The translations under genes were made by a program, and so were the position numbers. A DNA stretch of 62,546 bases, filler included, from Stramenopiles sp. TOSAG23-6 (lineage: Eukaryota): NCBI GenBank assembly GCA_900128565.1. It is 6 parts of 6 records of this genome, joined end to end, with 100 filler letters (N's around TTAATTAATTAA, not from the genome) between each part and the next. Parts side by side here need not be neighbours in the genome. Positions count along the whole stretch, not along the records: positions 36,693 to 48,817 come from LT636218.1; 5 more parts are not named here. One strand, written 5' to 3'. How positions within the stretch are numbered: the stretch's first letter is position 1; each line of letters starts with the position of its first letter. Positions 3,001-61,141 of this stretch are shown piece after piece. Below the pieces are notes generated by a model that did no database searches, had not been told where the DNA came from, and saw nothing but the letters and a program-made list of their open reading frames with translations.

Positions 3001-4400
3001 TTTCTACAGATGCTGCATGTAAAAGTCGTAATTTACAGATTCGAACGTATGAAGTAATCCCAATGACTAAAACGATGGGTGTTTTACAATGGATATCAGA
3101 TAGTGTTCCGCTAAAGAGTGGAATAGAAGAAAGTATATTTCAATCCTTGAAAAGGCAAAATGTATTAAAAAAAGTGTCTCGTCATCGTCAAAATAGTAGA
3201 AAAAAACAAATTTTACAGAAATATGAGTTAACCAATTTGGAATGTGTAGGATTGCGTATACAAAATAATTTCTTAGCTACAAAGAAGAAATTTGGCCACC
3301 CTTTTGATCCAAAGACATATATTAAACTTATGGAATTTGGACAAGTCAAGGATTGTATTTCAAATTTCAATAATTGTGTAGACGATGTATGTTTTATTTT
3401 TTTTCAAATTCCAATTTGTTTTCGTACGAAATTTTGTACTACCACGAGATTTATTGCGACAAATTCTTTTTGATCTCACCAAAACACCAGAAGGCTTTCT
3501 AGCAATTCGAAAGAATTTTGCACAAACATTTGCAACATTTAGCATTGCTTCCTATATATTAGGTATAGGTGACCGACATTTAGCAAATTTTTTATTGGAC
3601 AAAACCAATGGATCGTGCTGTGGTATAGATTTTGGGTATTCTTTTGGTATTGGTTGTACGTTGTCCACTTTAATTTCATTTTTCATGCAAAATGTCGTAC
3701 CTAACAAAAAAAAACATTTTTTTGAATCTGAAGGTTTCTATGATTTTAGTAATATACCTAACAATTCCTAACAATACCTAACAAATGTCAAACGTAAAAT
3801 ATATATTTTCACAATAAATGCACTCTACCTGTACCTGAACTGACTCCTTTTCGTCTCACTCCACAATTTACGAATTTATTTCGCCCATTGGACTCGAAAA
3901 GTTTATTAAGTCAGTCAATGGTTGTAACTCTAGATGCATTACAACGAAATCGTTTGGAATTACTAAATATTATGGATGTTTTTGTCCAAGAACCACTCAT
4001 TGATTGGANAATTTCTGCTTCAAAAAGTAAACAAACTGAATCCTTACCATCATCTGTATTAAATATTTTGTCTAATAGTTCTAATAATTCTAATAGAAAT
4101 ATTGAGGATAGTTGGTATCCACGCAAAAAAATTGCCACGGCGGAGCTAAAGTTATTAAAAGGAAATCCATGTAAAATCATGATTGAACACGAAATACGTG
4201 GTCAATTACATCCATTAGCACGTAAACAACAGGATAAATATGAAGAATGTATTTGGGGAAATGAAAATTGCTCACGTCGAAATGTAAAACATAAAGATTT
4301 TTGTCCTGATGTTGAAACACAAGTGAAATATCTCATCGAAATGGCATCAGATCCAAATGTTCTTGTTCGACAATATGCAGGTTTTTCTCCATGGGTATAA
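59..4400 (+). CDS. PRKDC: DNA-dependent protein kinase catalytic subunit (PIKK), 3' part, 5'-truncated; exons ~59-469, 569-1294, 1389-1671, 1781-3386, ~3436-3655, 3820-4400
   Basis: Motifs MNSKQLPKRL, YLVKGGEDLRLDQRIE, ILGIGDRHLANFL, GIDFGYSFG, LPVPELTPFRLT, MDVFVQEPLIDW and a FATC end (DPNVLVRQYAGFSPWV*). Frames join when the repeat introns are removed. Confidence 0.9.
470..568 (+). mobile_element. Introner-like intron, GT...TT (or AT...AC if shifted 2 nt)
   Basis: GTATGT start and family core. Removing 99 nt joins EEG-C-IDTIG. Confidence 0.8.
1295..1388 (+). mobile_element. Introner-like intron, GT...AT
   Basis: GG|GTATGT...CACAATAAAT|GT joins YVA-G-VTKIG. Confidence 0.85.
1672..1780 (+). 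mobile_element. Introner-like intron, GT...AT
   Basis: AT|GTATGT...CCAAAATACAT|C joins ESH-I-ETSL. Confidence 0.85.
3387..3435 (+). mobile_element. Truncated introner-like intron lacking CTAAC and the 3' half
   Basis: GTATGT...TTCGTACGAAATTTT runs straight into exon VLPRDLLRQ. Confidence 0.65.
3656..3819 (+). mobile_element. Introner-like intron, GT...AT, with four CCTAACAA copies
   Basis: Removal gives SFGIGCTLPVPELTPFRLT, the conserved PIKK motif. Confidence 0.9.
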
Positions 4401-12132: not shown

Positions 12133-12232
12133 NNNNNNNNNNNNNNNNNNNNNNNNNNNNNNNNNNNNNNNNNNNNTTAATTAATTAANNNNNNNNNNNN
12201 NNNNNNNNNNNNNNNNNNNNNNNNNNNNNNNN
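12133..12232. other. Artificial contig linker (N-TTAATTAATTAA-N)
   Basis: 100-nt spacer with stops in all frames; same design occurs five times. Confidence 0.97.
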
Positions 12233-19021: not shown

Positions 19022-20768
<1,747 letters not shown>

Positions 20769-24364: not shown

Positions 24365-24464
24365 NNNNNNNNNNNNNNNNNNNNNNNNNNNNNNNNNNNN
24401 NNNNNNNNTTAATTAATTAANNNNNNNNNNNNNNNNNNNNNNNNNNNNNNNNNNNNNNNNNNNN
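24365..24464. other. Artificial contig linker
   Basis: N-TTAATTAATTAA-N. Confidence 0.97.
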
Positions 24465-24573: not shown

Positions 24574-25123
24574 TTTTTGAATCTTGGATAATGACTTCTA
24601 AATCGGACAGACCTGTATAGTGAAACAAATAATGTAAAACATTTAAAATTTTGTGACAACTAAAATTCTTAGGTACAAAATTTCGTATGAAACCAAAAAA
24701 AATAAATAAATTTGAAATTCATGATGAAATCATACACAATTCAAACACTAAATGGAGTCTCTCTTTGTGTGAAAAAATATCTAGTAGTGATATTATATTG
24801 GGGTGTGGTAGTAATTGAAATTCCTTTAGTAATTTGATTTCACGAAGTGTTACTACGCCTACACCTTCAGCTGTATTTTCCATACGCATTTTCTTTACAG
24901 CTACTTGAGTTCCAGAATGTTCATTATCTGTTGCCAAATAAACCGTCCCAAATGTTCCTTTTCCCAGTTCTTTTCCCTTTGTATATCTATGCCATCCTAC
25001 TTTTTGTGTACTTACATTTATATTTGATGTAAGTGTAGAACTCACATGTGTAGATGAAAGTGTACATGCTTTTTTTAAGGTTTTTGAATCAGTCAAGCCA
25101 ACGTTTTTTCGTTTTGTAGACAT
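24574..25123 (-). CDS. Mirror copy of CDK7 exons 1-2
   Basis: Reverse complement of 28070-28619; the ORF translations are identical. Confidence 0.7.
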
Positions 25124-26798
25124 GGTGGTTGAAATTGTACTCTAAAGAGTGTACGTAGTGTTGAACACTGTTCGATGAACGATTTGCCAAGCTAATCTAT
25201 ACCGTATCACAACGCTTGGATATATATTCAATACTTTATTTATATTTGAGCAAGTCAATCACTGAAAAACACTATTGTTATTATTATTATACTCTGTTTT
25301 TTTTTAGTATACGTAGTGTGCGAGGTGTAGTCAATGATAGTGAGAGTACTTGATTCGCACTTGATTCCTTGACTACGACTTTCTAACCCTAACCCTAAAC
25401 ACCAAACACAAGCAACAACACTCCATGGATTTGGTTTTAAAATTGCGGATTTCGTGTATACTTTCGAAAGTTGAAAAACGACAAATAAAAACCATTAGTA
25501 TTATATCTTGAAAAACGTATCTCATTTTTCATTCTTTTCAAATTACAGTTGTTTATTGCTTCATAATAAAACTAATTTGGGATAATTTCTCATTTTTCAT
25601 TCTTTTCAAATTACAGCTAGTTGACCAGCTAGTTGAACCAGGCTTTCAACAAATGATCTTGTAAATCATATATATGATTTTATTCAAAAAATGTACATCA
25701 GGTATGTACCAACTAAATATAGCTACTTATTATATAGAACAAGATGTCGTATCTATATGTATATATGATACGTATTTTGATGATAATAATACTAATAATG
25801 GTTATTCGATTTCTATATTGGATACGATTTCTATAATACCGTATATTTTAAATCAGTACCGGGTGTACGCCTAGGAGGGAATAGATTTTAATATAAATAA
25901 AGACATTTTAAAATCAAAATTGTAAAACATTTTTACTCAAAAAATAATTATTACACTTCATATGTACATTCACCCGTTACCTGGTTCCAATAGAAAGCCA
26001 GTGAATTCGTGTTTGTATTAATCACACTCACCCACAAATTTTGTTTTTTGGATTGTCTTTTTTTTTGTCTAGGGTTAGGGGTAGTAGAATCATTGATTTC
26101 GTGTCGTTCAGAATCATTTATGTTTTTCCTTGTATTGTTTTTATTATTATTCAAAATACGTAAATTCTGCTCTTCATCTATTTCATCTCTTGTGCGTATT
26201 TTAAGTTGAGAAAAATGTGTCATATCATCAAAATGTTCAACAGTACTAGGGTTAGGGTTGGAATTTTTTTCAATATCATCATTATCATTCAATACATCAA
26301 TCATATGATGATTTTCAATATTTTCAACAATTTCAATATTTTCATCATCAGCATCATCATCATAATCATCATAATCATTATAACCATCAGTCATTATTTT
26401 TTTCAGCAAATAATTTAACAATTGTTAAATGAAATTTGAGAAATAAATTACTTCCACATCCTTGACTCAATTCATCATGAATTGTACAAAAATATTTCGA
26501 AAAAATTTTATATTTTTGTTAGGTATGAAATTTCGTATGAAAAAAAAAAAAAAAAAAAAATAAAAAAAAAAAAAAAAATTTAAAAAAAAATAAAAATTTT
26601 TATTTTTTTTTAAATTTTTTTTTTTTTTTTTATTTTTTTTTTTTTTTTTTTTTCATACGAAATTTCATACCTAACAAAAATATAAAATTTTTTCGAAATA
26701 TTTTTGTACAATTCATGATGAATTGAGTCAAGGATGTGGAAGTAATTTATTTCTCAAATTTCATTTAACAATTGTTAAATTATTTGCTGAAAAAAATA

Positions 26799-27242
26799 AT
26801 GACTGATGGTTATAATGATTATGATGATTATGATGATGATGCTGATGATGAAAATATTGAAATTGTTGAAAATATTGAAAATCATCATATGATTGATGTA
26901 TTGAATGATAATGATGATATTGAAAAAAATTCCAACCCTAACCCTAGTACTGTTGAACATTTTGATGATATGACACATTTTTCTCAACTTAAAATACGCA
27001 CAAGAGATGAAATAGATGAAGAGCAGAATTTACGTATTTTGAATAATAATAAAAACAATACAAGGAAAAACATAAATGATTCTGAACGACACGAAATCAA
27101 TGATTCTACTACCCCTAACCCTAGACAAAAAAAAAGACAATCCAAAAAACAAAATTTGTGGGTGAGTGTGATTAATACAAACACGAATTCACTGGCTTTC
27201 TATTGGAACCAGGTAACGGGTGAATGTACATATGAAGTGTAA
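26799..27242 (+). CDS. Acidic low-complexity ORF with a C-terminal WW-like domain (mirrored at 25951-26394)
   Basis: LWVSVINTNTNSLAFYWNQVTGECTYEV*. Confidence 0.55.
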   Translation: MTDGYNDYDDYDDDADDENIEIVENIENHHMIDVLNDNDDIEKNSNPNPSTVEHFDDMTHFSQLKIRTRDEIDEEQNLRILNNNKNNTRKNINDSERHEINDSTTPNPRQKKRQSKKQNLWVSVINTNTNSLAFYWNQVTGECTYEV

Positions 27243-28069
27243 TAATTATTTTTTGAGTAAAAATGTTTTACAATTTTGATTTTAAAATGTCTTTATTTAT
27301 ATTAAAATCTATTCCCTCCTAGGCGTACACCCGGTACTGATTTAAAATATACGGTATTATAGAAATCGTATCCAATATAGAAATCGAATAACCATTATTA
27401 GTATTATTATCATCAAAATACGTATCATATATACATATAGATACGACATCTTGTTCTATATAATAAGTAGCTATATTTAGTTGGTACATACCTGATGTAC
27501 ATTTTTTGAATAAAATCATATATATGATTTACAAGATCATTTGTTGAAAGCCTGGTTCAACTAGCTGGTCAACTAGCTGTAATTTGAAAAGAATGAAAAA
27601 TGAGAAATTATCCCAAATTAGTTTTATTATGAAGCAATAAACAACTGTAATTTGAAAAGAATGAAAAATGAGATACGTTTTTCAAGATATAATACTAATG
27701 GTTTTTATTTGTCGTTTTTCAACTTTCGAAAGTATACACGAAATCCGCAATTTTAAAACCAAATCCATGGAGTGTTGTTGCTTGTGTTTGGTGTTTAGGG
27801 TTAGGGTTAGAAAGTCGTAGTCAAGGAATCAAGTGCGAATCAAGTACTCTCACTATCATTGACTACACCTCGCACACTACGTATACTAAAAAAAAACAGA
27901 GTATAATAATAATAACAATAGTGTTTTTCAGTGATTGACTTGCTCAAATATAAATAAAGTATTGAATATATATCCAAGCGTTGTGATACGGTATAGATTA
28001 GCTTGGCAAATCGTTCATCGAACAGTGTTCAACACTACGTACACTCTTTAGAGTACAATTTCAACCACC

Positions 28070-30109
28070 ATGTCTACAAAACGAAAAAACGTTGGCTTGA
28101 CTGATTCAAAAACCTTAAAAAAAGCATGTACACTTTCATCTACACATGTGAGTTCTACACTTACATCAAATATAAATGTAAGTACACAAAAAGTAGGATG
28201 GCATAGATATACAAAGGGAAAAGAACTGGGAAAAGGAACATTTGGGACGGTTTATTTGGCAACAGATAATGAACATTCTGGAACTCAAGTAGCTGTAAAG
28301 AAAATGCGTATGGAAAATACAGCTGAAGGTGTAGGCGTAGTAACACTTCGTGAAATCAAATTACTAAAGGAATTTCAATTACTACCACACCCCAATATAA
28401 TATCACTACTAGATATTTTTTCACACAAAGAGAGACTCCATTTAGTGTTTGAATTGTGTATGATTTCATCATGAATTTCAAATTTATTTATTTTTTTTGG
28501 TTTCATACGAAATTTTGTACCTAAGAATTTTAGTTGTCACAAAATTTTAAATGTTTTACATTATTTGTTTCACTATACAGGTCTGTCCGATTTAGAAGTC
28601 ATTATCCAAGATTCAAAAAGTAGGTTTTATTTTTTTTTTTAACAAAAAAATCGAATTTTTTTTTATAGTAAATTTTGTACCTAACAAATTTTTTAGAATT
28701 TTTTTTGAAATATTTTTTCAAAATACATCACCACTTTCACCAAGTGATACAAAAACATATATGCTTCATATTCTACGGTCAGTCTCACATTGTCATAATA
28801 ATTGGATTATGCATGTATGTTTTTTTTTTTTTTTTTTTAAATTTTTTTTTGTATGAATTTTTTTTTCGTACGAAATTTTGTACCTAACAAATTTTCAAAA
28901 TTTTTTTTTTTGAAATATTTTTCCGAAATACATCGAGATTTAAAACCAAATAATTTTTTTCTTGGTGTTGACCATCAACTAAAGTTGGGTGATTTTGGTG
29001 CAGCCAAGGAATATGTATGTACTCATAATGAACACACACGAAATATTTTGAATAAAGATTATTTTTGTGTGAAATTTGTGAAATTTTTGAAATTTTTGAA
29101 ATTTGAAAAAAAAAAAAAAAAAAAAAAAATTTTGACCAATTTTTAATCTGTACATAAATTTCACAATACATGCATCTCCTGAACGACAATATCATAATGT
29201 AATGGTGACTATATGGTATCGTCCTCCTGAATTACTGTTTGGTTCAAGAAATTATGGTGTTGGTGTTGACATGTGGTCTATTGGTTGCATTTTTGCTGAA
29301 TTATTACTGAAAAAACCTTTTTTAGCAGGTCAAAATGTTTGTTTTTTTTCTCAATTTTTTTTTTTTCGTAGGTAATTTTGTACCTAACAAATTTTCAAAA
29401 TTTTTTTTTTTGAATTTTTGTTCAAAATATTTATATTTATTATGAACCTTTTCAAAGTTTTTTTTNTTTTATTTTTTTTTGGTATGAAATTTTGTACCTA
29501 ACAAAACCCAATATATAGACAAAAAAAAATATTTTTTTACAAAAAATGAATTAGATCAACTAGGAAAAATGTATGTTTTTTTTTTTTTCAAATTCAAAGT
29601 TTTTTTTCGTACGAAATTTTGTACCTAACAAAAAAAAATTTCAAATATTTTTCCAAAATACATATTTCATTATTTAGGAACACCAACTGAAGCCATTTGG
29701 CCCGGTATGACGTCATTACCATCATATATTGGTTTTACACCATGCAAAGCACCACCACTAAAATCATTATTTATTGGAGCATCCAGCGCAGCTGTTGATC
29801 TTATATCTAAATTACTCATGTACGCTTTCATCGTTTTTAATTTTTTTTTTTTTTTTTAAATTTTTTTTTTTTTCAATTTTTTTTTTCAATTTTTTTAATT
29901 TTTTTTTTTTTTTTTTTCATACGAAATTTTGTACCTAACAAAAAAATAAAAAAAAAATTTCAAATATTTTTTTTCAACATAGTTATGATCCTTCGAAGCG
30001 TATTTCTGCTAAAGAGGCGTTACGTCATAAATATTTCACAGAAGGTGTTCAACCAACACAACCAAAAAACTTAGCAGCAGCAGTGAAATTATCATCTAAA
30101 AGGAAATAA
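28070..30109 (+). CDS. CDK7: Cyclin-dependent kinase 7 (CAK/CDKD)-like; exons 28070-28457, 28581-28619, 28729-28814, 28934-29014, 29172-29336, 29548-29570, 29664-29819, 29983-30109
   Basis: Spliced product [85 protein letters not shown]. Confidence 0.9.
28458..28580 (+). mobile_element. Introner-like intron, GT...AG
   Basis: Family core; joins FEL-C-LSDL. Confidence 0.9.
28620..28728 (+). mobile_element. Introner-like intron, GT...AT
   Basis: AA|GTAGGT...AAAATACAT|CA joins DSK-T-PLSPSD. Confidence 0.88.
28815..28933 (+). mobile_element. Introner-like intron, GT...AT, inside the catalytic HRD motif
   Basis: CAT|GTATGT...AAATACAT|CGAGAT gives H-RDLKP. Confidence 0.92.
29015..29171 (+). mobile_element. 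Intron GT...AT with a degenerate family core
   Basis: TAT|GTATGT...CACAATACAT|GCA gives KEY-ASPER. Confidence 0.85.
29337..29547 (+). mobile_element. Introner-like intron, GT...AT, with two core copies
   Basis: Joins AGQN-ELDQL. Confidence 0.85.
29571..29663 (+). mobile_element. Introner-like intron, GT...AT
   Basis: Joins [10 protein letters not shown]. Confidence 0.9.
29820..29982 (+). mobile_element. Introner-like intron, GT...AG
   Basis: Joins KLL-I-YDPSKR. Confidence 0.85.
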
Positions 30110-36592: not shown

Positions 36593-36692
36593 NNNNNNNN
36601 NNNNNNNNNNNNNNNNNNNNNNNNNNNNNNNNNNNNTTAATTAATTAANNNNNNNNNNNNNNNNNNNNNNNNNNNNNNNNNNNNNNNNNNNN
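36593..36692. other. Artificial contig linker
   Basis: N-TTAATTAATTAA-N. Confidence 0.97.
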
Positions 36693-36878: not shown

Positions 36879-37160
36879 TCAACGTTGAACTTTGCATCCT
36901 CTATAACTATTATTCTTTACACAAAATTTCAACATTTCAGACCAACATTTCAGACCAATATTGATCATCTGCTAATGTAAATGGATTACCTACAACAATT
37001 GTTAGCAATTTTGCACGAGTTAACACAACTTGTGTTTTAGAAAAATATTTAATTTGTTTTTTGTTAGGTACAAAATTAAATACGATTTTCTTTTTTGAAA
37101 TTGAAATGATAAAATCGTACAATAAATTTACGAGGATTTCCCATTAAACCAAGTCCCATT
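36879..37160 (-). pseudogene. MOV10/UPF1-type SF1 RNA helicase C-terminal fragment
   Basis: LGLMGNPRKFI-VVLTRAKLLTIVVGNP...DQYWSEML. A 13-nt duplication shifts the frame away from KFCVKNNSYRGC. Confidence 0.7.
37030..37120 (-). mobile_element. Introner-like intron, GT...AA
   Basis: GTACGA...TTTTGTACCTAAC...AAAACACAA|GTT. Confidence 0.75.
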
Positions 37161-37540
37161 TTAATACGTAATTGACAAGCTCGTTGCTCTGCTGCTTTTG
37201 ACACAGGTCCCAATGTTTCCTGTTGTAACTGTAATTTATTTAATTTTGATAAAATTACTTCATTACTCAGTTGACTGCTCACCAATTTGATTTTTTTGTT
37301 CAATCAAAAATCTGATTGATTTGATTAGATTCGATTATCAGATTATGGTAAAGATATACAACAATTTGGAATAAAATAAGACACATACATAAAAACTCTT
37401 CTTGGTAAAACAAATTTTTATTAGCAAAAAATAAAACTCAATTTTACCTTAACTTATATCATGCAGTCAAATTTTGGGTTATTACTCTAAACATATACAT
37501 GACAAACTCATAAAACAGCTTTCTTTCAATATATATTGAA

Positions 37541-39738
37541 TTAATAACCTAAGAAATGTACAAGAGCACAAACTGTGAGAAGTAAACTCCAGTTACCTTG
37601 AATGATTCCACCAGGCGCACCATTATCAGGTGTAGCTCTATCTCGATGAGCTATTTTGTGAGCTGGCGTTGGAGGTGACTCTGGCGTTGGAGGTGACGCT
37701 GGCGTTGGATGTGACTCTGGTTGCAAAGGTTGCTGTGGGTTTGATTTCGGAGGTGGCGTTGTTGGAGCTGGCGTTGGAGCTGGCGTTGGAGCTGGCGTTG
37801 GAGCTGGCGTTGTTGGAGCTGGCGTTGGAGCTGGCGTTGGATCTGGCGTTGTTGGAGCTGGCGTTGGATCTGGCGTTGGAGCTGGTGTTGGAGCTGGCGT
37901 TGGAGCTGGCGTTGGTTTGTTTTTCATATCAGACTGAGTATAATATGTCAGTAGCATTACAAATGAATAAATATTACAACTTTGAAAATAAAATATTTCA
38001 AAGAAGCGTTTGTAAACAACATACCATATAGCTTCAAGGCCTTTACCTTTTCCACACCTTTTACAATTAAAGTCGGCACCAGGCGTTTTACAAATATTAT
38101 ATGGAAAATATGTTACATTGATTTTTCTGTGTAAATCTTAATAGTTTTAAACAATACTAAACTAAAAGTACCATTTGTTATGAATATAAAGTACGCAATG
38201 TAATATATACAATATGATAACTCTACANCAAATGAATAAAAGTCAATATTGAAAAAATATAGTATTAGATGTACAATTCATAAAATACTTGCAATAATTT
38301 TTAGAATATGTCACAACTTCACCACAAATGAATAAATATTAACTTTACGTAGTACATTTTAAATATGTATCATCAAAATATGTAAAAAGTACCAGTCTNT
38401 TTTTNTTAAAGGTGTCGTATCTTTATCACCTTTAGCATTTTTNTGACCGTCTTTAGTATNTNTGCAANTNCCACAATCGAGTTGANCGGNACACATACAC
38501 TGTGGACAATATATAACTTTTTCTACTACTGAGTAAACAATNATACTACTAAAGGGCAAGATGTTTTAGCCTAATTTAAAACCAATACAAAATATTTGAT
38601 GTATTGTGTACAATATCTTGATTATAACTAAAATAAATAAACACTGGTTGCATTAAAATGCGTAAAATTATTCAATTTCTGTTAATAATTAGAAAATACC
38701 AAATATGGTGCATATTATATGTCAATTGTAGTACAAATGAATTACAACAGTATTTGCCTATGGTTTCAATTAACAATAAATTTGTTTCAAATCAATAAAA
38801 TGTATCCTTTTGAATCTTCGCCGCATCCAGCGTTTTCTTCAGGGTTAGCACATTGCAAATAATGTACACAATAAATCAATGATGAAACACGTAAACAATT
38901 ATAATTTGATCAAGTTTTTTTCTCGTAATAGTAATACATCCAACAGATAGAACATTCTCAATAAAATGTGTACCATATGCAAATAATAAGAAATATGAAT
39001 CATAATTTTTCCAATAGACTCATCGTTCTAGCAATGCTTGTTAGAAATACAATATACGCCACATAATGTATAGAATATGCAAATAATAAGAAATATGAAT
39101 GACCATAACTCTATCAAAAGATCCATTGTTGTAGCAATATATGTAATACTTAGCAAATACGTAATATAATGTGCNAAGTATTTACATTAGATGACAAATA
39201 AAAAATGTTGATACCGTATAAAATTACACAAATTATTCTGTTGACTGTAATAAATAGAAAATACCAAATGTGGTGTAGGATATATGTCAATTGTACTGTA
39301 AATGAATAAACAGTGATGCTATACAAAGTTTAGTATTATAGTCTCATTTCAAATGAACTGAAAATACTTGATCTTTGATGTCACCGCCTTGTTCACCACC
39401 GCTGTTGCTTCTTTTTTCATGTGATACACGATATATGTCAATGGTACCGAAAATGAATAAACAGTAATATATACAAGGTGTAGTATTATTATATCAACTT
39501 CAAATAAATATCGTATACGCGCTTCCGAACCATTTTTTAATGTGATACATGATATATGTCAATGGTACCGAAAATGAATAAACAGTAATATTATACAACG
39601 TGTAGTATTATTATATCAACTTTAAATAAATATCGTATACAGGTTATCCCCCGGACGCCATCCTTTCGCATCAACAGTTTCAAATTGGTTCGCAACAAAT
39701 ACAGCAAGCAGAAATACTGAGAGATATTTTGTTTTCAT
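37541..39738 (-). CDS. Micro-exon gene (or pseudogene) for a secreted Cys-rich, (TPAP)n-stalked, possibly GPI-anchored surface protein
   Basis: Signal-peptide exon 39738-39641, in-frame 21-nt and 51-nt exons, and a last exon with PTPA repeats and a hydrophobic C-terminus. The middle exons cannot be fully phased. Confidence 0.5.
37755..37915 (-). repeat. 12-bp tandem repeat (GGCGTTGGAGCT on +) encoding TPAP
   Basis: Seen directly in the sequence. Confidence 0.9.
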
Positions 39739-40288
39739 CGTTATTTTTGCTATTCGAGTAAATATATATACATGAATGGTTTAATGTGTAAGTGTGCCGA
39801 AACTATGTTCTATCGGATTACTCACTGTGGAAAACCTCGTTTGAAAGGTCTTTAGTACTCGTTTTGCATTGCACTAAAGTTTGTCCACATGGACTTTCAA
39901 TTACAACTGTCGTTATCATAAACGATACTTCAAATGACATTTAAAGTGTTGGATATGGAGAAAATAATTATAATAACAATGTGTGTGGTATACGTACCTT
40001 TTGCGGAAGAGTATCGGGTGATTTTTATAATACGCTCTTTCTTTGCGTCGGTTGGATTTCAAATTGCAAGGGCAAGCGGAGAACAGAAAGAACAACAAAT
40101 TTTAAAAACAGGATACGATTTTGAATGCGTTCCTCCATGTGGTGTGATACCCGGTACTTACAACCCTAACCCTAGATTGATGTTGACTATCGGACATAAT
40201 ATCGCAGTTACATTCTATTCGACAAATTTTATTTTCACTCGGAAGTAGATTTGATAGTACTCGTAGTATAACACAAAAATACAATAAT

Positions 40289-42436
40289 ATGGATGTAGAT
40301 TTGCCCTACTTGGACATTCTCTGTTCAATGGATGATGCAGAAGCAGCAATTCAGACAGAATTAATAGGAAAGCACCCAGATAGGCTACTTCACATAATGA
40401 CCCAATGTGTTGGTTTAGCGCGGGTCCAAGAAATAGGATGCCGTGCTATTTCTCTTTTATTGAGTGATCCAAAGGATTCACAGCAATTAAAGCTACTTTT
40501 ACTTGAAGCACATGTGATTGATGTACTTTCCAAAGTAATGAGCTTACATCCGAAAAATAAAGGTGTACAAGTACAAGCTATGTTTACTTTTTCATACCTA
40601 TGCTGGGGTGACTGCAGCGTATCTTCACAATGTGTACGCGCTGGATTAGATACACTGATATGTGAAGCAATGGCAAAACACCCAGAAAATATTATTCTTC
40701 AAGAATCTGCATGCCGATTAATTTCTATTTTAACTACAAACCATAGATTAAATCAGGTAAATATTTATCGTAGAGGAGCGATCAAACTAATACTTTCTGC
40801 TATAAACTATATTTCTTTACCAAAAATAAAAGAAAGCAAAGAAATTGTCTCACAATTGAAACCAAAATTAATTTTATCGGGCTGTTTTGCACTCTATAAT
40901 TTGACCAGAATTGGTGATGCACTTGACGAGATTCAAGGCAATATTACTACAGATGAGGATATTCAGGAGAATAGTAAAGCAAAAGTTATAGTTGATGCTT
41001 TAGAAAATATTTTCACAATCCTTGTAGAAAGTACAAATCATTTAAAATTACAGGAATGGGGATTTCGTGTGATTGCATGTATTACATTTCAAAGAATTGA
41101 CCTACAGAATGTATTAGTAAAAAAAGGAATTTCTTTACAAATTGTGAAAATTTTAAAATTACACCAGAAAGTAGCACCCGTGTGTATTTCTGTTTGTCAA
41201 ACTTTGTATGTATTTGCTTATAATAACAAAAGGGTGTGCGGCGAGACTTTTCGATACAATTCTATTTCTATTTTGTGTAATATTTGCAAATTTCATACAG
41301 ACAATAATAATGTTGTGAGTAATGTATTGAGATGTATGTGTTGTTTAACAAATATATCCCGCGGAATTGAACAGCTGATAGAAAATGAAGATTATATTTC
41401 TATAATTTCACATGTCTTTGAAGATACTACTACTACTAATGACAATAGTAATAATATAAATGAAATAATTGTAAATGCACTAATGCTACTTACAAATATT
41501 TGTAGTAACGATATAGCCCAAAACAAAATTGGGAAAAGTTCATTGTTTGATCGTATAATATCATTACTTATTAAAAATGTTCAAAACTTTAAAATTTCAA
41601 GTTGGTGTATTGCAGTTTTGTGCGCTCTGACTATTGAAAATGATCCAATTATACAAAAAATCACAAGTAGTAACATTTGTATTATTCTCATAAAGTCGAT
41701 TTATAATGATATTCAGTGTAGTTCAACAAAAACAGAACAACAAAAAATAATGAAAAACAAGCATCAAGAAGAAAGTTTGTTTTTGGTAATTAATACATTG
41801 CGACTAATTTATGCAATTTCATTTTCAGGAAAAAATTCTTCCTATAAAAGTGTACTAGGTAAAGAGATTTATGCTCTTTTACTTGATGTACTCACCAACG
41901 AAAAGTATCAAAATAATAACATATTAATAATGAATACCATGAAATGTATATCATCCTTATGTTTTCATTGTCCTAGCAATCAAATGATGTTTTCTGAACC
42001 TGCGGAACAGGTTGGTCAAGTAAATGAAGATTCTTCCAACAAGATAAAAAATACAAAAAGTGATCCATCGATTATACCCTCGATACTTCGTTGTATGCGA
42101 TTGCATAAACTTAATGAAGAAGTTCAAGAATGGTCGTGTACCTCAATTTATAATTTAAGTGTTAATATTACAAATCAAATTTTATTCGGCGATCTTGGTG
42201 CCATTGAAGATATTTTGTATGCAATGAAAGCATTTGAAAACAGTTCCGTTATTCAAGAACAAGGTTGTGTGGCTCTTAGAACATTGTGTTTTCGAAATAA
42301 ATTAAACAGAATCCGTGTAAAAAAATTGGATGGTATAGATATTGTTCTAGTAGGTATGAAAATACACAGCGACAATGCAGATGTACTTTATTGGGGGGAG
42401 AAGGCACTAAAATGTATTCGCAACACAAAAAAATAA
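40289..42436 (+). CDS. Armadillo-repeat protein
   Basis: Repeated M..H..N..VQE..C..L..L units; intronless 715-aa ORF. Confidence 0.85.
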   Translation: MDVDLPYLDILCSMDDAEAAIQTELIGKHPDRLLHIMTQCVGLARVQEIGCRAISLLLSDPKDSQQLKLLLLEAHVIDVLSKVMSLHPKNKGVQVQAMFTFSYLCWGDCSVSSQCVRAGLDTLICEAMAKHPENIILQESACRLISILTTNHRLNQVNIYRRGAIKLILSAINYISLPKIKESKEIVSQLKPKLILSGCFALYNLTRIGDALDEIQGNITTDEDIQENSKAKVIVDALENIFTILVESTNHLKLQEWGFRVIACITFQRIDLQNVLVKKGISLQIVKILKLHQKVAPVCISVCQTLYVFAYNNKRVCGETFRYNSISILCNICKFHTDNNNVVSNVLRCMCCLTNISRGIEQLIENEDYISIISHVFEDTTTTNDNSNNINEIIVNALMLLTNICSNDIAQNKIGKSSLFDRIISLLIKNVQNFKISSWCIAVLCALTIENDPIIQKITSSNICIILIKSIYNDIQCSSTKTEQQKIMKNKHQEESLFLVINTLRLIYAISFSGKNSSYKSVLGKEIYALLLDVLTNEKYQNNNILIMNTMKCISSLCFHCPSNQMMFSEPAEQVGQVNEDSSNKIKNTKSDPSIIPSILRCMRLHKLNEEVQEWSCTSIYNLSVNITNQILFGDLGAIEDILYAMKAFENSSVIQEQGCVALRTLCFRNKLNRIRVKKLDGIDIVLVGMKIHSDNADVLYWGEKALKCIRNTKK

Positions 42437-42598
42437 AAAATTCATTGTGTTTTTATTCTTTAAACATAATTTCATTCTTTATTTCTGTTTTGAAAATGAA
42501 CCTCCATCGGGAGATGAAGTCATCTGCGCTACTCATGAACACTGTCTGTATAATTTCCTTACATTCTTCATTTGTTTTTGTTCGCTATTATTGGTCTC

Positions 42599-48817: not shown

Positions 48818-48917
48818 NNNNNNNNNNNNNNNNNNNNNNNNNNNNNNNNNNNNNNNNNNNNTTAATTAATTAANNNNNNNNNNNNNNNNNNNNNNNNNNN
48901 NNNNNNNNNNNNNNNNN
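48818..48917. other. Artificial contig linker
   Basis: N-TTAATTAATTAA-N. Confidence 0.97.
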
Positions 48918-61041: not shown

Positions 61042-61141
61042 NNNNNNNNNNNNNNNNNNNNNNNNNNNNNNNNNNNNNNNNNNNNTTAATTAATTAANNN
61101 NNNNNNNNNNNNNNNNNNNNNNNNNNNNNNNNNNNNNNNNN
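61042..61141. other. Artificial contig linker
   Basis: N-TTAATTAATTAA-N. Confidence 0.97.

Follow-up and report, generated by a model that had tools for sequence, protein, structure and literature searches.

The VSPs of Giardia and the immobilisation antigens of ciliates are variable proteins that carry CXXC motifs, a signal peptide and a membrane anchor. To our knowledge, almost nothing is known about cell-surface variation in uncultured marine protists. Here we describe positions 39738 to 37541 on the minus strand of a 62,546-nucleotide (nt) stretch of DNA from Stramenopiles sp. TOSAG23-6 (assembly GCA_900128565.1); the whole stretch is referred to as the window, and all positions count along it. 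This locus very probably holds a hidden split gene for a secreted protein. The explanation that we favor, and to which we give somewhat better than even weight, is that it is a single unannotated, much-interrupted gene for a small secreted surface protein, in which exon cassettes are set in a conserved frame of introns that begin with GT and end with AT (GT...AT introns). Its product would resemble the Giardia and ciliate antigens in its CXXC motifs, signal peptide, variability and predicted membrane anchor, but it has no sequence match among them, would be far smaller, and combines a mucin-like stalk with a split gene.

An earlier interpretation of the window, made from the DNA letters alone (the sequence-only reading), had placed a micro-exon gene with a second family of AT-ending introns here and had likened it to the micro-exon genes (MEGs) of schistosomes. 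In the MEGs of Schistosoma mansoni, 10-20 exons of 6-81 bp, most of them divisible by three in length, are separated by introns of 100 to almost 5000 bp, and variety is generated by alternative splicing (PMC10526429). The locus is similar in its leading signal-peptide exon and its very short internal exons, two of which, at 21 and 51 nt, have a length divisible by three, as well as in its secreted product (here predicted), its high variability and its having been missed by automatic annotation. It differs in that its spacers are look-alike units of ~76-101 nt, the variety seen lies in the exon DNA itself, and the lineage is that of a protist instead of a flatworm. No alternative splicing was seen, and protein searches found no sequence likeness. 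The comparison with schistosomes thus stands as an analogy: the split gene appears to work somewhat like a micro-exon gene, but it does not appear to be a member of the MEG family.

Two further systems share parts of this anatomy. The intron-like units of this locus have in common with introners (PMC11282704; for Amoebophrya, PMC7789003) a short length of ~100 nt, a look-alike sequence and fixed ends, and the first two of these units, I1 and I2, have imperfect inverted termini followed by AT, as in the main intron family of this genome. Unlike introners, the units have copies in this one gene only within the window, fall into several unrelated groups, and show no AT duplication before GT, except at unit I7. 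In conotoxin genes, the mature-peptide exons diverge faster than the adjoining non-coding DNA while the cysteines are kept; these genes mostly have three exons and long introns and belong to animal venom families (PMC10561478). Exon variation exceeds that of the flanks here too, as seen in one variant contig and in ambiguous bases, but the predicted product looks like an anchored surface protein and not like a toxin. Among the matches listed by a full-text search (15 of 114), no paper uses the phrase "GT-AT introns"; published protist genes of this build were not searched further.

If the gene is spliced as we propose, it would provide a second, independent set of AT-ended introns in this organism, and would separate the case of a mobile element that brings its own acceptor from that of a spliceosome that accepts AT generally. 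In addition, exons that vary between identical introns suggest that an uncultured marine protist has a surface protein that evolves fast or swaps cassettes. Standard gene finders would completely miss this class of gene in such genomes.

Structure of the proposed split gene

We propose that the coding pieces of the gene are GC-richer islands among AT-rich units of ~76-101 nt that start with GTAY and mostly end with ACAT (Table 1). GC content is 35-54% in islands E1, E2, E3, E8, E9, E10 and E11 vs 18.9-28.0% in all units between them. A codon-usage score trained on 12 long open reading frames (ORFs) of the window is positive for the islands and negative in all three frames for each of the six units scored.

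Table 1. Coding islands and intron-like units of the proposed split gene, from its 5' to its 3' end, in window coordinates
Feature	Position	Strand	Length (nt)	Description
Exon 1 (E1)	39641..39738	-	98	Start codon and predicted signal peptide; ends in codon phase 2
I1	39540..39640	-	101	GTATAC...TCACAT; TTGACATAT motif ~14 nt before end; GC 23.8%
Exon 2 (E2)	39519..39539	-	21	Multiple of 3; GC 42.9%
I2	39419..39518	-	100	Ends pair as 11-bp terminal helix in predicted fold
Exon 3 (E3)	39368..39418	-	51	Multiple of 3; hypervariable; GC 45.1%
I3	39268..39367	-	100	Related to I1 and I2
I4-I7 run	38862..39267	-		Four GTAT...ACAT units; preceding spacers 3, 8, 8, 28 nt
I4	39169..39264	-	96	
I5	39066..39160	-	95	
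I6	38966..39057	-	92	
I7	38862..38937	-	76	
Island E8	38805..38861	-		Coding-like; exon 3 paralogue by alignment; GC 43.9%
Second block copy	38509..38804	-		Second copy of I3-TTG-I4 block and one further unit, from duplication alignment
Cys-rich exon E9	38393..38508	-	116	Two CXXC motifs; GC 37.4%
Three units	38110..38392	-	~96, 91, 85	Spacers of 8 and 3 nt in best-scoring model
Exon E10	38025..38109	-		One CXXC in better-scoring frame; GTATGT donor follows; GC 35.3%
Last unit	37926..38024	-	99	GTATGT...GATAT, in the model that keeps the Cys frame
Last exon (E11)	37541..37925	-		Thr/Pro/Ala repeats, short unique part, hydrophobic C-terminal tail

Much of the 5' part is as the sequence-only reading had described it. 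Exon 1 opens at an ATG at 39738, the translation of exons 1 to 3 is confirmed, and the seven introns I1 to I7 lie where they had been placed, with 7 of 7 beginning GTAT and ending ACAT and with spacers of 21, 51, 3, 8, 8 and 28 nt between exon 1 and the island at 38861. Exon 1 encodes a predicted signal peptide with a basic start, a hydrophobic core (the best 11-residue Kyte-Doolittle window, at residues 6-16, scores 2.95) and small residues before a likely cleavage site. Both this peptide and the hydrophobic tail of the last exon were judged by inspection, composition and hydropathy. The GC content of exon 1 is 40.8% vs 24% in the next unit, and its codon score of +10.8 is reached in this frame alone. 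Exon 2 contains an alternative AT acceptor 8 nt inward; if this were used, exon 2 would shrink to 13 nt and exon 3 would be read in another frame.

Island E8 has a codon score of +12.1 in a Cys-containing frame, the Cys-rich exon E9 has a single open frame with a score of +14.2, and E10 scores +6.8 in its CXXC frame vs -0.8 in its other open frame. The last exon has a codon score of +112 and a GC content of 53.7%, and its stop codon is at 37541-37543. Its first 70 residues include 31 Pro and 16 Thr, and its tail, with a hydropathy of 2.4, is similar to the signals for attachment of a glycosylphosphatidylinositol (GPI) anchor. The sequence-only reading had drawn the lower limit of the gene at 37934, which falls on a CAG; the Thr/Pro exon has its ATG at 37927 and runs on beyond that limit. 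It has no signal peptide of its own and lies 1.7 kb downstream of exon 1 on the same strand. Composition and hydropathy together give the build of a GPI-anchored, mucin-like protein, with a signal peptide, a Thr/Pro-rich stalk and a hydrophobic C-terminus. The product would consist of the signal peptide, short peptides from the variable exons, the CXXC exons, and the Thr/Pro stalk with its GPI-signal-type tail, and would be held at the cell surface by the GPI anchor. A Pfam search with three exon translations found no family for two of them and one match far below the cut-off for the third.

The units between the islands form a regular series. The minus strand from 39640 to 37926 accommodates 12 non-overlapping GTA[TC]...ACAT units of 70-105 nt each; in sequences simulated with a first-order Markov model the mean was 4.9, and only 1 of 2000 reached 12. 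The opposite strand takes 6 such units, and every other 1715-nt stretch of the window takes 6 or fewer. This figure overstates the independence of the units because several of them duplicate each other. The likeness between I1 and I2 (96% identity) begins exactly at the G of GT and runs through ACAT; the exon ends before them are unrelated. A branch-like motif of the TTGACATAT type, which the sequence-only reading had noticed in several introns, is present in I1, I2 and I3 and in three further units (38742-38703, 38342-38306 and 37977-37941). The motif pair TTTATTCATTT ... TGACATAT could serve as a search handle for these intron-like units. Besides the end given in Table 1, the last unit has an ACAT end 19 nt earlier, which suits the other frame, and a CAG at 37934.

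The long ORFs of the window are interrupted by ~35 copies of another intron family of ~100 nt (the main family), the core of which, GTACCTAAC, has 40 matches in the window vs 6.6 expected. As the sequence-only reading had stated, the introns of the split gene lack this core: an nhmmer profile of 19 main-family copies gave a best E of 0.9 in 37400-39900, and comparison of the units with two main-family copies showed no likeness (z below 4.3). We also compared 14 of the units with each other by pairwise alignment against shuffles. They fall into one larger group (I1, I2, I3, 38804-38703, the two units after the Cys exon and the last intron), two pairs (I4 with 38699-38601, and I5 with I6) and two singletons (I7 and 38194-38110). 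A BLAST search of seven units against the 62.5-kb window found copies confined to 38703-39640. The proposed second family of AT-ending introns thus resolves into five or more unrelated sequences, alike only in their ends and length and local to this gene in the window; what holds of that proposal is that they are unlike the main family and share the same ends. The strongest internal argument for the GTAY...ACAT ends being functional signals is that they recur in units that do not have a common origin. Judging from these alignments, the units appear to have arisen mostly through local duplication, and transposed copies are not in evidence. Terminal helices were predicted for I2 (Table 1) and, in weaker form, for I1 and I6, and the other folded units had none. 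GC-richer patches at 39008-39046 and ~39110-39140 lie within the related units I5 and I6 and may be relics of former exons.

From these boundaries we infer that splicing most likely uses the GT...AT ends of the units, the first two introns and the last being the best candidates. Between exon 3 and the Cys exons, the whole run would come out as one or a few composite introns.

Exon variation

DNA of the window was found in two metatranscriptome runs from one seawater sample (sampled-word shares of 0.10 and 0.06), and contigs from these runs were compared with the window over 38543-42500. Against the gene neighboring the split gene, they show 0-1 differences. Two contigs lie on the split gene: record 1, of 164 nt, on 38652-38814, and record 2, of 253 nt, on 39275-39527. 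Record 2 has 9 substitutions and 4 gap letters relative to the window, and every one of them is at 39372-39410, inside exon 3. Its other 202 aligned bases, which include all of I2, 93 nt of I3 and 9 nt of exon 2, are identical. When rebuilt by a script, with a result that depends on how the gap table is read, the variant exon 3 is again 51 nt, keeps the first 8 and the last ~4 nt, and has the same two frames open. In the frame used by the sequence-only reading, 10 of its 16 codons are changed, none of them synonymously; in the other open frame, 7 codons change their residue and 4 changes are synonymous.

Ambiguous bases show a similar concentration. Of the 14 single Ns in the window, 12 are in the split gene, which makes up 3.5% of its length (binomial p ~3e-16). 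Nine of them are in the 116-nt Cys exon, distributed 2:5:2 over codon positions 1:2:3, and none falls in a Cys codon. The sequence-only reading had taken the scattered Ns for collapsed variants; their clustering in the gene is clear, and collapse is one candidate reading of it among several. A third comparison comes from within the gene, where the exon parts of two paralogous blocks (E8 vs E3) are 41% identical (21/51) and the adjoining introns ~60%. Paralogues, which the sequence-only reading had suggested looking for, were found inside the gene (E8 and its duplicated block), and metagenome contigs gave no locus (see below).

Together, the variant contig, the clustering of Ns and the paralogous blocks indicate that the exons vary and the introns do not. 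In our model, the exons at 39418-39368 and 38508-38393 vary strongly between copies or alleles while the adjoining introns stay identical, so that cassettes which are exchangeable or evolve fast sit in an intron frame that is itself conserved. The earlier suggestion of a variable surface protein gains from the changed 51-nt exon between unchanged introns and from the Ns clustered in the Cys exon. The variation may be a result of diversifying selection, of cassette exchange via the conserved introns, or of tandem units collapsed in the assembly. A bolder version of the model, which we offer only as an unlikely extension, is that the GT...AT introns provide constant stretches of homology on either side of the cassettes, and that recombination or gene conversion, between alleles or between hidden paralogues, exchanges or replaces the cassettes, so that a free-living marine protist with an AG-independent spliceosome would vary a GPI-anchored, CXXC-rich surface protein exon by exon. 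Such a system would be the protist parallel to micro-exon or cassette variation. On that cassette-exchange view, accepting AT would be a general rule of splicing in this organism and not a property of one element, since the introns of the split gene are unrelated to the main family and have the same ends.

AT and AG acceptors

The AT acceptors of the split gene are proposed from the unit boundaries, and other genes of the window offer some independent guidance. Main-family ends in the window are mostly AT, with AG ends in some copies (e.g., ...ATACAG at ~24630 and ~28560). One border is fixed by homology. A DNA-PKcs-like gene matches solved structures to chain residue 3807 and again from residue 3811 in the next ORF; the unit between the two ORFs (within 3656-3800 of the window) starts with GTACGT, its sole frame-keeping end is ...AATAAAT, and there is no AG nearby. 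The junction gives two residues where the human protein has three. This border indicates that an AT end is real for at least one intron of the window, of the main-family type. In a katanin-like gene, homology ends exactly at a GTATCT donor; a check of the 3' border with a 27-residue query matched only designed repeat proteins.

We then searched for complete splice paths from exon 1 to the last exon of the split gene. With strict ends and introns of 60-130 nt there were none, and looser splice rules allowed from 1.7e5 to more than 1e26 paths. The path picked by a scored model opens with I1 and I2, continues with a 123-nt intron ending in ACAG and a 654-nt intron, and in its 3' half has three short introns, exons of 8 and 3 nt, and the 99-nt last intron ending in GATAT. 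This path is to be read as a model and not as evidence.

Weighing the split-gene explanation

Several observations weigh against the split gene as we propose it, and the first of these concern the splice signals. The donors are weak, with the G at position 5 that is present in the main family missing from most units. None of the 12 units folded showed an excess of stability (z from -1.4 to +1.9). E8 has no GT donor where exon 3 has GTAT, and all three of its frames stop before the next GT; it could be a dead cassette, or its donor could be other than GT. When one acceptor at a time was allowed, coding scores were 141-166 for GT-AT and 138-159 for the control rules GT-AC, GT-TT and GT-AA, so an open path tells nothing about AT vs AG. 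The sequence-only reading had regarded AT acceptors as a general property of this spliceosome. The GTAT...ACAT ends of all seven introns and the DNA-PKcs-like border speak for that idea; frame continuity does not, being equal under GT-AG and the controls.

The evidence from variation also has weak points. The frame of exon 3 is doubtful, with two frames open in both the reference and the variant, and 5 of the 9 variant substitutions are on third positions of the frame that the sequence-only reading did not choose. Reading polymorphism into the single Ns presupposes that the assembly was built in a certain way.

RNA and protein searches did not recover the spliced product. In the seawater contigs over 38543-42500, no splice joint was seen that would connect the segments as the sequence-only reading had anticipated; exon 1 was uncovered, save for a 33-nt piece with 3 mismatches that is not credible. 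Both contigs on the split gene are collinear with the genome through proposed introns. Their depth (3.5 and 5.1) is equal to that on the neighboring gene (3.4-4.5), and the contigs may therefore stem from unspliced RNA or from carried-over DNA. Searches of 5.8 billion protein clusters with the last ORF (near and shorter lengths) and with exon 1 (longer lengths) returned only low-complexity Thr/Pro matches or nothing. In metagenome contigs, neither the intron motif nor a degenerate pattern of the CXXC exon gave a locus.

Alternative explanations

The gene could be real and yet spliced in a conventional way. A few longer GT-AG introns would then join exon 1, part of exon 3, the Cys exon and the last exon, and the GTAT...ACAT units would be duplicated filler. 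We consider this unlikely. A GT-AG-only path with 3 to 5 introns does exist, and its score of 135-153 is near that of the GT-AT paths, but with the control rules scoring equally, the path itself is no evidence. It uses AG sites without a pyrimidine tract or branch motif, one of them after a run of A, requires one intron of just 50 nt, and omits the GC-rich 21-nt island, E8 and most of E10. The variation data are more favorable to it, as the 4 synonymous codon changes of the variant exon are in the frame of this path. The main family can be quoted on both sides: AG ends occur in some of its copies, but its ends in the window are mostly AT and one of these is fixed by homology.

Another explanation is that there is no single functional gene here. 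The locus would be a decaying tandem array, or two small genes, one for a short secreted peptide and one, with its start at the ATG at 37927, for a tail-anchored protein rich in Thr and Pro; the splice look-alikes would descend from duplication. This would fit the lost donor of E8, the GC-richer relics inside I5 and I6, the unspliced contigs, and the failure of contigs and protein searches to yield a spliced product. It fits poorly with the strongly diverged variant of exon 3, which keeps its length and open frames, and with the Cys codons, which are spared by the Ns. Two small genes would, moreover, leave a Thr/Pro exon with the make-up of an extracellular stalk but no signal peptide, and an exon 1 that by itself gives a product of 38 residues. 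On balance we regard it as improbable.

The sequence-only reading had treated each unit as a separate intron and the pieces of 3, 8, 8 and 28 nt as true micro-exons, and had flagged middle junctions that are out of phase by 1 nt. If this is essentially right, the phase trouble would come from an assembly indel or from collapsed variants. The units are indeed regular (92-101 nt), with ACAT directly before the short spacers and GTAT after them, the ACAT-TTG-GTAT junction is kept in both copies of the duplicated block, and the best-scoring model of the 3' half contains exons of 8 and 3 nt. The phase trouble is real as well: joining exon 3 to the four pieces leads into the island at 38861 out of frame, with a stop within seven codons, and if exon 3 is read in its alternative open frame, a stop is reached within the 28-nt piece. 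That piece has a GC content of 28.6%, which is intron-like and no richer than the introns around it; at 3 or 8 nt, the other pieces are not long enough for GC content to tell. Although the assembly is visibly imperfect here, as its Ns show, a chain that reaches a stop codon in either possible frame and for which no RNA support was found among the contigs is very unlikely, and serial micro-exons of 3 to 8 nt are very rare. Under the split-gene explanation, the I3-I7 run is probably one composite intron.

Genomic setting

The window is AT-rich (GC 25-40%) and densely packed with genes, its long open frames encoding ordinary eukaryotic proteins, and the neighboring genes and the seawater RNA runs indicate that its host is a marine protist. 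The next gene downstream of the split gene, on the minus strand, has a main-family-type intron beginning with GTACGA at 37008-37120; both kinds of intron therefore sit in adjacent genes. Elsewhere, a 10-nt direct repeat (ACAGGAATGT) is found at both ends of the main-family copy at 19186-19245, so its borders can be read in several ways, GT...AT included. We had considered a non-GT donor for this copy, near 19236, and dropped it because the direct repeat permits a GT...AT reading.

Two further features concern the window as a whole. Pairs of 44-N blocks 12 bases apart are found at 12133-12232, 24365-24464, 36593-36692, 48818-48917 and 61042-61141. They return every ~12.2 kb, have the look of a masking or scaffolding artefact and are probably not biological. 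An exact inverted duplication pairs 24719-25141 with 28052-28474 and 25951-26424 with 26769-27242, with its center near 26.6 kb and with the same 140-aa and 157-aa open frames on opposite strands. It takes in a kinase-like gene with main-family introns and could be either a real palindrome or an assembly artefact.

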